In this document: piece by piece, positions 53,461 to 55,282 of the stretch | How positions within the stretch are numbered: position 1 is the first letter of the stretch | Layout: every line of letters begins with the position of its first letter | From: Clostridia bacterium | GTDB taxonomy: Bacteria; Bacillota; Clostridia; Oscillospirales; Acutalibacteraceae | Length of the DNA: 64,000 nucleotides | NCBI GenBank assembly: GCA_017465465.1 | Contig: JAFTWE010000006.1 | Span: forward strand, 18,466-82,465 | Reading direction: 5' to 3' | Program-made: the position numbers and the translations under genes | Notes under the pieces: model-generated | What the model saw: only the letters and a program-made list of their open reading frames with translations | Database searches by the model: none | Told to the model about the DNA's origin: nothing

Positions 53461-53526
53461 AAAAAAGAAAAGGCGCTCATCTCAATGTAGATTGTTTTCT
53501 ACACTGAAATGAACGCCTTTGCTCAT
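53461..53526 (-). promoter_or_regulatory. Leader attenuator of the GOGAT-glnA-ANTAR operon: hexaloop hairpin versus terminator
   Basis: The minus-strand RNA forms AUGAGC[AAAGGC]GUUCAU (53509-53526). This overlaps the 5' arm of a long imperfect hairpin (53469-53520) followed by UCUUUUUU. Confidence 0.6.
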
Positions 53527-53534
53527 TTGCAAGT

Positions 53535-53563
53535 ATTATACGCCTTATCCTGCATTTTGTCAA
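53535..53563 (-). promoter_or_regulatory. Consensus sigma-A promoter of the GOGAT-glnA operon
   Basis: On the minus strand, TTGACA - 17 nt - TATAAT. Confidence 0.65.
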
Positions 53564-53625
53564 GAGGTTATGTGAAAGTTCCGACTCTTTTTGCAGGAAT
53601 TTCGCAAAAAAGTTTCAAAAAGGGG

Positions 53626-53654
53626 TTGACAAAGTTTTTTTGCGGGTGTATAAT
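53626..53654 (+). promoter_or_regulatory. Consensus sigma-A promoter of gdhA (divergent from the GOGAT promoter)
   Basis: TTGACA (53626-53631) - 17 nt - TATAAT (53649-53654) with a TG extended -10. Confidence 0.7.
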
Positions 53655-53663
53655 GCAGAGCGT

Positions 53664-53704
53664 GAAGGCAAAGGCGTCTTTGAGTGTAAGTGCTCAAAGA
53701 CGCT
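53664..53704 (+). promoter_or_regulatory. gdhA leader module 1: hexaloop hairpin versus stem-loop
   Basis: GAAGGC[AAAGGC]GUCUUU (53664-53681) overlaps the hairpin GCGUCUUUGAG..CUCAAAGACGC (53673-53704), which is followed by UAUUUUACUUUC. Confidence 0.5.
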
Positions 53705-53745
53705 ATTTTACTTTCAGGAATCCAAAAACAATTTTATATTATGAA

Positions 53746-53811
53746 GAAGGCAAAGACGTCTTTAATGTTGTAGGGGATACCCCCTACCGTTAAAGGCGTC
53801 TTTTCTTTTTT
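53746..53811 (+). promoter_or_regulatory. gdhA leader module 2: hexaloop hairpin versus intrinsic terminator
   Basis: GAAGGC[AAAGAC]GUCUUU (53746-53763) overlaps the 14-bp outer stem AAAGACGUCUUUAA/UUAAAGGCGUCUUU (53752-53803). That stem encloses GUAGGGG..CCCCUAC and is followed by UCUUUUUU, 19 nt before the gdhA ATG. Confidence 0.65.
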
Positions 53812-53829
53812 CAACAAGGAGGAAACAGC

Positions 53830-55164
53830 ATGTCGTATGTAGATGAAGTAATCGAACGAGTAATTAAAGAGAATCCCAATGAGCCTGAATTCCATCAGGC
53901 AGTCAGAGAAGTTCTTGATTCTCTCTGTCCGGTAGTTGACGCCAATGAGCAAGCTTTCCGACGCGATGCGCTGCTTGAAAGATTGGTCAATCCCGAAAGG
54001 CAGATCAAGTTCCGTGTGCCGTGGATCGATGATAACGGTCAGGTTCACGTCAATACCGGATACCGCGTTCAGTTTAACAGTGCCATTGGTCCCTACAAGG
54101 GTGGTCTGAGACTTCATCCCTCCGTTAACCTTGGTATTATCAAGTTCCTCGGTTTCGAGCAGATCTTCAAGAATTCGCTGACCGGTCTTCCTATCGGCGG
54201 CGGTAAGGGCGGCTCGGACTTCGATCCCAAAGGCAAATCCGACCGAGAGATTATGGCGTTCTGCCAAAGTTTCATGAGTGAGCTTTGTAAGTACATTGGT
54301 GCAGATACCGACGTTCCCGCGGGTGATATCGGTGTCGGCGGACGTGAAATCGGCTATATGTTCGGTCAGTATAAGAAGCTTCGTGGGTTGTTTGAAGGAG
54401 TGCTTACCGGTAAGGGTCTTTCCTACGGCGGCTCTCTTGCCAGAACTGAAGCTACTGGTTACGGTCTGCTTTATATTGTAGAAGAAATGCTGAAATGTCA
54501 CGGCGAGACCATCGAAGGCAAGACCGTTACCGTTTCCGGTGCCGGCAACGTTGCTATCTATGCGATTGAAAAAGCACAGCAGCTCGGCGCAAAGGTTGTG
54601 ACCTGCTCTGATTCTACCGGTTGGGTTTACGATCCCGATGGCATTGATGTGGCAGCCCTCAAAGAAATCAAAGAAGTTAAACGTCAGAGACTTACTGAAT
54701 ATAAGAACTACAGACCGAATGCCGAGTATCACGAAGGAAAGGGCGTTTGGAGTATAAAGAGTGATATCGCACTTCCTTGCGCTACCCAAAACGAGCTCGG
54801 TCTTGAGGATGCGAAAACCTTGGTTGCAAATGGCGTGATCGCTGTTGCAGAAGGTGCGAATATGCCGACCACCGCAGAAGCAACCGATTACTTCCAGGCA
54901 AACGGTGTATTCTTCCTTCCCGGCAAGGCAGCCAATGCAGGCGGCGTTGCTACCTCTGCTCTTGAAATGTCTCAGAACAGCGAGAGACTTCACTGGTCCT
55001 TTGAAAAGGTCGATGCTAAACTCAAGGGTATTATGGTAGATCTGTACCACAATATTGACGAGGCGGCAAAGAAATACGGCTTTGAAGGAAACTACGTTGT
55101 CGGTGCCAATATCGCCGGCTTTGAAAAAGTCGTTGATGCCATGAATGCACAGGGTATCGTGTAA
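53830..55164 (+). CDS. gdhA: NADP-specific glutamate dehydrogenase
   Basis: 444 aa; AGGAGG RBS; GDH signature [18 protein letters not shown] and dinucleotide fold VSGAGNVA. Confidence 0.9.
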
Positions 55165-55187
55165 TAAGCATACAAGTCAATATAAAT

Positions 55188-55239
55188 AAAGGCAAAGGCG
55201 TCTTTAATGTTTCCCACATTAAAGGTGCCTTTATCTTTT
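55188..55239 (+). promoter_or_regulatory. gdhA-glnN intergenic module: hexaloop hairpin versus terminator
   Basis: AAAGGC[AAAGGC]GUCUUU (55188-55205) overlaps a 17-bp hairpin (55194-55232, loop UUCCC) followed by AUCUUUUC. Confidence 0.6.
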
Positions 55240-55282
55240 CACAAACTAACACAACATCTCGATTAGTGAAGGAGAATATATC

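Follow-up and report, generated by a model that had tools for sequence, protein, structure and literature searches.

A single-hexaloop hairpin module overlapping intrinsic terminators in nitrogen-assimilation leaders of Clostridia, and its putative ANTAR antiterminator

Antitermination by ANTAR-domain proteins is currently taught as a two-hairpin mechanism, and the 2022 structure of EutV bound to RNA left open why two hairpins should be needed. This question is raised by a stretch of 64,000 nucleotides (nt) from a Clostridia bacterium of the Acutalibacteraceae (GenBank assembly GCA_017465465.1, contig JAFTWE010000006.1, positions 18,466 to 82,465; the whole of this stretch is referred to below as the window), in which the leaders of nitrogen-assimilation genes carry four copies of a small RNA hairpin, each with a loop of six nucleotides (a hexaloop) and each overlapping a transcription terminator, and in which one of the operons so equipped encodes an ANTAR protein. 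Can one hexaloop per terminator serve as the antiterminator of such a system? We consider it likely that it does: the analysis presented here points to a nitrogen regulon of protein-dependent attenuators run by the co-encoded, non-phosphorylatable ANTAR protein through single-hexaloop antiterminators.

The ANTAR substrate as described consists of two hexaloop hairpins (P1 and P2) with A at loop position 1 and G at position 4 (A1 and G4), closed by a C-G pair and overlapping a terminator (Ramesh et al. 2012, PMC3369931). Antitermination by EutV requires both hairpins and a spacing of 5-12 nt between them (PMC3369931; PMC8934654); the ANTAR dimer engages one hexaloop at a time, and isolated P1 or P2 is bound with an affinity like that of the pair (PMC8934654). 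Walshe et al. (2022) revised the minimal unit for binding to a single hexaloop, and the authors of the 2022 EutV-RNA structure predicted single-hexaloop sites only where no polymerase races.

Hairpins sharing nucleotides with intrinsic terminators

Each of the four copies in the window (Table 1) comprises a 6-bp stem and the hexaloop AAAGRC. One copy, of a stem type termed class A, lies in the leader of a minus-strand operon for split glutamate synthase (GOGAT), type I glutamine synthetase (glnA) and the ANTAR protein; of the other three, of class B, two lie in series ahead of gdhA and one between gdhA and glnN. The window genes were assigned by Pfam, and the assignments made in a preliminary description of this DNA, which had been drawn from the sequence alone, hold. 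The sequence likewise bears out the positions which that description had given for all four small hairpins and for the longer hairpins with U-tracts that accompany them. On folding, the latter reach -18.3 to -34.7 kcal/mol, as against -4.7 to -6.1 kcal/mol for the small hairpins alone, of which the class A copy may be extended to 8 bp across 53507-53528. The longer structures are intrinsic terminators by definition, being stable G+C-containing stem-loops directly before a U-rich tract, and the leader segments that bear them gave folding z-scores of -5.3 to -9.0 relative to shuffled sequences. The U-tract after 53704 (AUUUUACUUUC) is weaker than the other three tails. Four of the five sites reported by a terminator scan fall in three of the four terminators; the one at 53752-53803, supported by folding, was not reported, probably owing to a mismatch within its stem.

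The loop and 3' arm of each small hairpin form the first 12 nt of the terminator 5' arm (9 nt in the terminator starting at 53673). As these nucleotides are common to both folds, hairpin and terminator are mutually exclusive, as had been claimed. The module is repeated in the window far more often than chance would allow: the 17-mer AAGGCAAAGRCGTCTTT has three exact occurrences and six with at most 3 mismatches, where shuffled sequences give 0.46; the core 9-mer GCAAAGRCG occurs six times against 1.4 expected; and a covariance model run over the 64 kb gave E = 2e-8 to 1e-6 for the four copies and E = 1.6 for the match ranked after them. Rfam, scanned with both gathering-score and E-value cut-offs, yielded no relevant family and only spurious microRNA-like hairpin matches in the region 53300-55400, all below the gathering score.

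The two promoters of perfect TTGACA-17-TATAAT type proposed earlier are both real; they are divergent and point apart, the gdhA promoter occupying 53626-53654 (+) and the operon promoter 53563-53535 (-). The end of the -10 box is separated by 8 nt from the 5' arm of the hairpin at 53509-53526 on the minus strand and by 9 nt from the hairpin at 53664-53681 on the plus strand. Between gdhA and glnN (55165-55282) a promoter scan gave no promoter-like site, in line with the preliminary description, and glnN is probably reached through read-through from gdhA.

Conservation of the module and its associated genes

It had been suggested that a covariance model of the module be run over relatives, with covariation expected in the stem, invariance at A1 and G4, and further copies upstream of nitrogen genes. 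The relatives used here are 80 loci, one per species-level genome and chosen solely for carrying an orthologue of the ANTAR protein (63-93% identity); most are metagenome-assembled genomes of Clostridia from gut and rumen, and cultured carriers among them are Agathobaculum desmolans ATCC 43058 (L058) and Merdimmobilis hominis (L065). A model built on 70 copies (24 nt, 6 bp) gave 124 matches at E < 0.05 in the window and 49 of the 80 loci, the window's share being the four known copies, and the 9-mer core is present in 47 of the loci. Over the 122 copies tallied for loop and stem, A1, A2 and G4 are each found in 122/122; position 3 is free (A in 92, G in 16, U in 9 and C in 5), position 5 is a purine, and the closing C-G pair together with the next pair, G.U, is fixed in 117. 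Even in leaders missed by the model, with AAGGGU, AAGGGA, AACGAU or AAGGAU loops, the A1/G4 rule is kept.

The stems fall into two classes associated with different genes. Class A (AUGAGC/GUUCAU) is found upstream of the GOGAT operon or glnA, and class B (AAAGGC/GUCUUU) upstream of glnN and gdhA and also of the genes for CTP synthase, adenylosuccinate synthetase, SAICAR synthetase and the ammonium transporter. At three of the six stem pairs both bases change from one class to the other with pairing kept, so that the expected compensatory switching is observed, and rarer variants (UGAAGC/GUUUCA and AAGAGC/GUUCUU) are compensated as well. Module orientation matches that of the downstream gene in almost every copy. 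The G.U pair, this orientation and the compensatory stem changes uphold the proposal that the module is an RNA rather than a DNA signal.

The competition with a terminator extends to the relatives: in 119 of the 122 copies the loop and 3' arm also take part in a terminator-like hairpin with a U-rich tail, and the terminator of the first module, GUCUUUGAG...CUCAAAGAC, recurs among the relatives. Alignment of 27 class A leaders gave the terminator as the consensus structure, with compensatory change at 11 of its 21 pairs, and substitutions at loop position 3 or 5 go together with substitutions of the paired base in the terminator 3' arm (columns 12-63 and 14-61). The loop is thus under two constraints, recognition and terminator pairing, and this double constraint is the signature of a mutually exclusive switch.

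In the 80 loci the module precedes glnN (52 copies), the GOGAT operon (34), glnA (11) and gdhA (9), with pyrG, purA, purC and amtB as further targets. A metagenome scan with the exact class B 17-mer as query gave 126 matches, 77 of them with an overlapping terminator; those 77 precede glnN (49), gdhA (5) and the genes for large GOGAT, CTP synthase and SAICAR synthetase, along with asparagine synthase (asnB), a Na+/glutamate symporter (gltS) and a GATase_3 protein. The motif is accordingly present before amtB and asnB, among the nitrogen genes at which enrichment had been anticipated. No nitrogen gene lies downstream of 48 of the 49 matches that lack a terminator, and by a rough estimate 49 is about the chance number for a 17-mer in such a collection.

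Some individual loci merit mention. In L045 (1092-1115, +) the stem variant UGAAGC/GUUUCA lies upstream of the gene for an 856-aa protein with a weak PPDK_N match, which may be an uncharacterised member of the regulon. Divergent glnA and glnN share one quasi-palindromic module in L029 (8572-8625), L024 (8560-8613) and L027 (3131-3184); it forms hairpin and terminator on both strands, implying overlapping antisense 5' leaders. The antisense of a class B terminator 3' arm with its U-tract mimics the motif (L026 4876, L010 4894, L074 4964). The records of L010 and of L024, L027 and L029 are labelled as Allobaculum stercoricanis and as Bacteroidales bins; their operons are of Clostridia type with ANTAR proteins 70-85% identical, which points to horizontal transfer or to errors of binning or labelling.

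One hairpin per terminator and the putative ANTAR antiterminator

The single-hairpin architecture was examined through a search for A1/G4 hexaloop hairpins with stems of at least 3 or at least 4 bp within 35-45 nt on each side of the module, in comparison with shuffled sequences. Upstream, partner hairpins within this distance were not enriched (6/119 copies against 9.6 in shuffles). Downstream, candidates with stems of at least 3 bp were mildly enriched (19/119 against 9.4); they are present in 16% of copies, at varying places and with varying sequences, and belong to the terminator stem. The second hairpins considered, UUC-AGUGYA-GAA and UGU-AYCGAA-AUG, were rejected as belonging to few leaders and being parts of the terminator stem, and the terminator apex was rejected as P2, its loops ranging from 4 to 10 nt with no conserved bases. 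The preliminary description of the hairpins as single rather than tandem thus stands, there being no enriched, conserved second A1/G4 hexaloop nearby.

The position of the promoters is equally informative. Of 47 class A copies, 31 have a -10 hexamer whose end lies 7-9 nt ahead of the hairpin; the distance is 8-10 nt in 30 of 75 class B copies, these being first modules, which begin at about +1 to +3 of the transcript. As the -10 box lies 8-9 nt from the first modules, the RNA begins with the hairpin, which leaves no space for an upstream partner; its earlier placement close to the predicted transcription start is thereby substantiated. Serial modules in glnN and gdhA leaders lie 64-90 nt apart, each with its own terminator, and class A leaders and many glnN leaders have one module only. 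A single hairpin per terminator is, we conclude, a genuine feature and one ancestral to the clade.

A further relationship was seen between serial modules. In the window (53673-53763) terminator 1 has a 3' arm (CUCAAAGACGC) complementary to GRCGUCUUU, the 5' arm of terminator 2, and the same complementarity is present in the tandem modules of L012, L017, L018, L048 and others. Judging from this complementarity, the strand freed when module 1 is antiterminated could also block terminator 2, making a relay between tandem attenuators possible.

The ANTAR protein, which had correctly been located at the end of the minus-strand operon, matches PF03861 with 60.8 bits (cut-off 27.3) and is alignable to Rv1626, AmiR and EutV. 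Its C-terminal ANTAR domain, of the three-helix type behind a coiled-coil linker, has the loop-contacting positions represented by EutV E160, Y164 and M172, with the residues that touch G4 and plug the loop kept: E160, M172 and K149 are kept, basic residues stand at the positions of K143 and K147, and the position of Y164 is occupied by His, as in AmiR. The window residues E164, H168 and M176, corresponding to EutV E160, Y164 and M172, are invariant in 18 metagenome orthologues and at least 90% conserved in the window protein and the 79 orthologues from the loci. The N-terminal part scores 21.6 bits against Pfam Response_reg, below the cut-off of 30.2, and lacks both the acidic pocket and the phospho-acceptor Asp of a response regulator, the acidic pair being replaced by S14-A15 and the acceptor by N59. 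These substitutions are found in 79 of the 80 sequences and in 17 of the 18 metagenome orthologues, at identities down to 45%; the phospho-acceptor Asp is missing from 97 of 98 orthologues. Since such a receiver cannot be phosphorylated, the activity of the protein must be set by a partner or ligand; it is presumably an AmiR-like pseudo-receiver governed in this way, and by analogy with AmiR it may be a constitutive dimer. No kinase or PII gene is adjacent to the ANTAR gene, as judged by Pfam for the window and from the related loci, and the pseudo-receiver implies a novel signal-input partner.

The order of genes in the operon is kept in related loci: wherever the sequence reaches far enough (65 of 80 loci), glnA is the gene immediately before the ANTAR gene, and in nearly all loci that cover the operon start, this start is preceded by a class A module; with a module before its own operon, the antiterminator would control its own synthesis. 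Of 13 metagenome contigs that were selected by the motif and have an upstream flank of 7.5 kb or more, 10 encode an ANTAR orthologue. The same class A hairpin, 8 nt downstream of TATAAT, is found even at a locus where the identity of the ANTAR protein falls to 48%. In the homologue search the best 120 matches all exceeded 92% identity.

Taken together, a mechanism may be proposed in which termination is the default, given that a hairpin of about -5 kcal/mol cannot compete with a terminator of -18 to -35 kcal/mol: each leader would fold into its long intrinsic terminator and transcription would stop. Under inducing conditions the dimeric ANTAR protein produced from the minus-strand operon would bind the nascent 18-nt hairpin, recognising the hexaloop A-A-N-G-R-C together with the closing C-G and G.U pairs. 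Binding would keep the loop and 3' arm out of the terminator 5' arm and so remove the bottom 9-12 bp, leaving a residual terminator stem about 12 nt from the U-tract and allowing RNA polymerase to continue into GOGAT-glnA-ANTAR, gdhA or glnN. Displacement of the terminator stem from the U-tract is the accepted mode of antiterminator action. The two modules often found in series in gdhA and glnN leaders would form successive checkpoints, the activity of the pseudo-receiver would be set by a partner or ligand reporting nitrogen status, as AmiC does for AmiR, and the operon, by encoding its own antiterminator, would be subject to positive feedback. The role is assigned to the co-encoded protein because the features of the hairpin match ANTAR recognition and one hexaloop is engaged per dimer. 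The analysis establishes the RNA structures and their mutual exclusivity, conservation and covariation, as well as the gene associations and the pseudo-receiver; we infer that the protein binds the RNA, that a single hairpin is sufficient and that the signal concerns nitrogen. Ten nucleotides are fixed in the module as against two in canonical sites, which suggests more base-specific contacts, and in class A about 28 nt separate the hairpin from its competing strand, which may provide time for binding.

The module agrees in many respects with the dual-hexaloop systems EutV/eut of Enterococcus, NasR/nasF of Klebsiella and AmiR/amiE of Pseudomonas: a short stem of at least 3 bp with conserved closing pairs, a hexaloop with A1 and G4, a C-G closing pair followed by a 3' U as in eutP P1, hairpin nucleotides shared with the terminator 5' arm, and an ANTAR gene in or beside an operon of nitrogen genes. 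The earlier attribution to the ANTAR substrate class is in keeping with this, A1 and G4 being invariant and the ANTAR gene following glnA within the operon. The differences are that one hairpin serves each terminator here, in place of P1 and P2 separated by 5-12 nt; that the loop itself, and not the 3' arm alone, lies inside the terminator; that sequence conservation is far higher (A1, A2, G4, R5 and C6 plus two closing pairs); and that first modules stand at the extreme 5' end of the RNA. The module lacks the tandem P1/P2 arrangement with a short linker that characterises ANTAR targets and otherwise fits that family where tested.

That ANTAR elements are connected with nitrogen genes in Clostridia, by way of dual hairpins, is an earlier prediction of Ramesh et al. 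(2012, PMC3369931; Fig. 9), whose Table S2 holds dual-hairpin matches by glnA, ANTAR and glutamate synthase genes in Alkaliphilus, Desulforudis, Carboxydothermus, Desulfitobacterium and Desulfotomaculum. The same glnA/ANTAR/GOGAT cluster exists, and is co-regulated, in C. thermocellum (PMC4676874), and NitR is cited as a glnA-linked antiterminator for solventogenic clostridia. The predicted regulons of Clostridia and Peptococcaceae (Desulfotomaculum, Carboxydothermus, Desulforudis, Alkaliphilus), together with NitR/GlnR, resemble the present one in having the ANTAR gene by glnA or glutamate synthase genes and, for the predicted regulons, terminator-overlapping elements in several nitrogen leaders of one genome; they are set apart by their descriptions as dual-hairpin motifs of 45-65 nt. 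A 2025 review covers dual hairpins only, and a literature search, with many subscription papers outside its coverage, returned no description of a single-hairpin module or of the GC-AAAGGC-GU core. AmiR of Pseudomonas aeruginosa is similar to the window protein in its receiver-like domain without a phospho-acceptor Asp, in its His at the EutV Tyr164 position and in having no adjacent histidine kinase. It differs in that no AmiC-like partner is encoded near the window protein and in that its RNA target is dual where that described here is single; sequence similarity between the two is low (E = 1e-4). The CAT-domain proteins BglG, LicT and SacY offer a precedent for a protein dimer stabilising a single hairpin that overlaps the terminator 5' arm, although their fold is unrelated and their RAT (ribonucleic antiterminator) target is a stem of about 29 nt whose internal loops are read in the groove, with no hexaloop.

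Several observations weigh against an ANTAR protein acting on single hexaloops. EutV depends on the pair of hairpins with a tight linker, in vivo as well as in vitro, so that success of a lone hairpin against a transcribing polymerase would go against the only tested case; three RNA-contact residues of EutV are not kept (R142 is replaced by I, R168 by E and R175 by C); co-occurrence of motif and ANTAR gene largely reflects synteny and is not independent evidence; the L055 glnA leader and a few other orthologous leaders are without a recognisable module; and stem covariation reflects few independent events, mostly the two sequence classes, in an alignment that was selected for pairing. The covariation therefore carries moderate weight, and the pattern of conservation is the stronger evidence. 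The loss of contact residues, and the fact that the case for ANTAR is one of association throughout, would suit the same RNA switch worked by another factor, such as glutamine synthetase, a PII-type protein or a small RNA, with ANTAR linked by synteny only. We regard this as unlikely, given that the loop rule, the hexaloop size, the C-G closure with its 3' U and the terminator overlap all fit the ANTAR definition and that the conserved neighbourhood encodes no further RNA-binding regulator; for a ligand-binding aptamer, an element of 18 nt is too small. Binding of CsrA type to a GGA loop was rejected, as loop position 5 can be A. The site could also be a canonical dual-hairpin ANTAR site in disguise, its second hairpin degenerate or distant, whether in the form of modules 64-90 nt apart or of a weak 3-bp hairpin inside the terminator. 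Tandem modules are indeed common in glnN and gdhA leaders, and the mild excess of downstream hairpins described above is what it would call for; yet class A and many glnN leaders have a single module, first modules begin at about +1 to +3, the candidate hairpins downstream are not alike from copy to copy in either position or sequence, the apex loops of the terminators vary in length and sequence, and the spacing is far above the linker tolerated by EutV, all of which render it quite improbable.

Two readings that dispense with antitermination altogether fare considerably worse. That the AAAGRC/GTCTTT hexamers, as direct or inverted repeats downstream of promoters, form a DNA operator for a nitrogen-responsive DNA-binding regulator is brought to mind by the class B core AAAGACGTCTTT, which is a DNA palindrome, by the overlap of first modules with the +1 region of perfect promoters and by the single palindromic module that serves divergent glnA and glnN in some loci. 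Modules such as those at 53746 and 55188 are far from promoters, however, orientation tracks the downstream gene, compensatory stem changes and the G.U pair are features of RNA, and the copies are tied to a terminator (119/122) within which loop changes are compensated, so that we give an operator hardly any credence. It is similarly very improbable that the leaders merely contain terminators of the common, unregulated kind or 5' stabiliser hairpins, alike through descent or duplication, even though three of the four window copies are nearly identical and could be recent duplicates, and the A-rich 5' arm pairs with the U-tract as in bidirectional terminators. Against this, the GC-AANGRC-GU core is invariant among loci whose ANTAR orthologues are 45-93% identical while flanks and apices diverge freely, the module occurs at the unlinked, functionally related genes pyrG, purC, asnB and gltS, and a terminator of -20 to -35 kcal/mol before essential assimilation genes would be senseless without an override.

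Antitermination by the co-encoded ANTAR protein at single hexaloops therefore remains our favoured reading, and it may be carried further. In a proposal that we hold to be evenly balanced, a large clade of gut, rumen and environmental Clostridia would have placed its whole ammonium-assimilation network under a non-phosphorylatable ANTAR protein, with one hexaloop per terminator, often at the very start of the transcript, and no recruitment hairpin, which current models treat as obligatory. The network would take in glutamine synthetases I and III, GOGAT, glutamate dehydrogenase and AmtB, together with AsnB, CTP synthase, PurA, PurC and GltS; the kinetic part of P1 would be taken over by extended base-specific recognition, through the ten fixed nucleotides, and by the length of the terminator stems; and the pseudo-receiver would sense nitrogen via a partner such as the adjacent glutamine synthetase. 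Bacteria of Oscillospiraceae and Lachnospiraceae type dominate gut and rumen communities, and their nitrogen control is largely unknown; the system described here is a probable master regulator of nitrogen assimilation in them. Its short motif is usable for regulon mapping in any genome, and a natural and widespread single-hexaloop family provides a direct experimental handle on the two-hairpin question.

Feature coordinates and other elements of the window

The features discussed above are collected in Table 1.

Table 1. Positions of the hairpins, terminators, promoters and genes of the nitrogen-assimilation locus in the window
Feature	Position	Strand	Details
Class A antiterminator hairpin, AUGAGC[AAAGGC]GUUCAU	53509..53526	-	Covariance model E = 5e-8; -6.1 kcal/mol alone
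Class B antiterminator hairpin 1, GAAGGC[AAAGGC]GUCUUU	53664..53681	+	Covariance model E = 1e-6
Class B antiterminator hairpin 2, GAAGGC[AAAGAC]GUCUUU	53746..53763	+	Covariance model E = 9e-7
Class B antiterminator hairpin 3, AAAGGC[AAAGGC]GUCUUU	55188..55205	+	Covariance model E = 2e-8
Terminator of minus-strand operon	53461..53520	-	23-bp stem 53469-53520, UCUUUUUU tract 53461-53468; -34.7 kcal/mol
Terminator 1	53673..53716	+	Stem-loop 53673-53704, U-rich tail AUUUUACUUUCA; -20.6 kcal/mol
Terminator 2	53752..53811	+	Stem-loop 53752-53803, tail UCUUUUUU; -32.0 kcal/mol
Terminator 3	55194..55240	+	Stem-loop 55194-55232, tail AUCUUUUC; -18.3 kcal/mol
Promoter of GOGAT-glnA-ANTAR operon, TTGACA-17-TATAAT	53535..53563	-	12/12 consensus match
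Promoter of gdhA-glnN transcription unit, TTGACA-17-TATAAT	53626..53654	+	12/12 consensus match
Regulated operon	46580..53432	-	GATase_2, Glu_synthase, Fer4, Pyr_redox_2, GXGXG (split GOGAT), then glnA (glutamine synthetase type I), then ANTAR gene; Pfam
ANTAR protein, 194 aa, pseudo-receiver; presumed trans-acting antiterminator	46580..47164	-	Pfam PF03861, alignments
gdhA (glutamate dehydrogenase)	53830..55164	+	Pfam ELFV_dehydrog
glnN (type III glutamine synthetase)	55283..57379	+	Pfam GSIII_N

Downstream of glnN, the open reading frame (ORF) 57971-60055 (+) encodes an aspartyl-tRNA synthetase (tRNA-synt_2, GAD and anticodon OB domains) with a C-terminal GatC (617-688), and on this domain content the product would be an aspartyl-tRNA synthetase-GatC fusion and a component of a transamidosome. 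A match of Ramesh et al. that precedes such genes in C. lentocellum prompted a search for a fifth copy of the motif upstream of this gene; none was found there, and the position is taken by a T-box leader (57592-57824, +; 79 bits, E = 2e-17, below the Rfam gathering score of 93). A possible ORF of 55 codons (57407-57573) lies between glnN and the T-box leader.

On the other side of the locus, at 44858-46066, the spoVAD ORF comprises 213 aa against a profile of 329 positions and is followed by a gene for TnpV, a transposon-encoded protein (45704-46066), and spoVAD may have been truncated by a mobile element. The ORFs 46294-46554 (-) and 45593-46012 (-) have no Pfam match. Farther away, a T-box leader at 14787-14999 (-; 124 bits) and a thiamine pyrophosphate (TPP) riboswitch at 21570-21666 (-; 67 bits) both score above their Rfam gathering scores.

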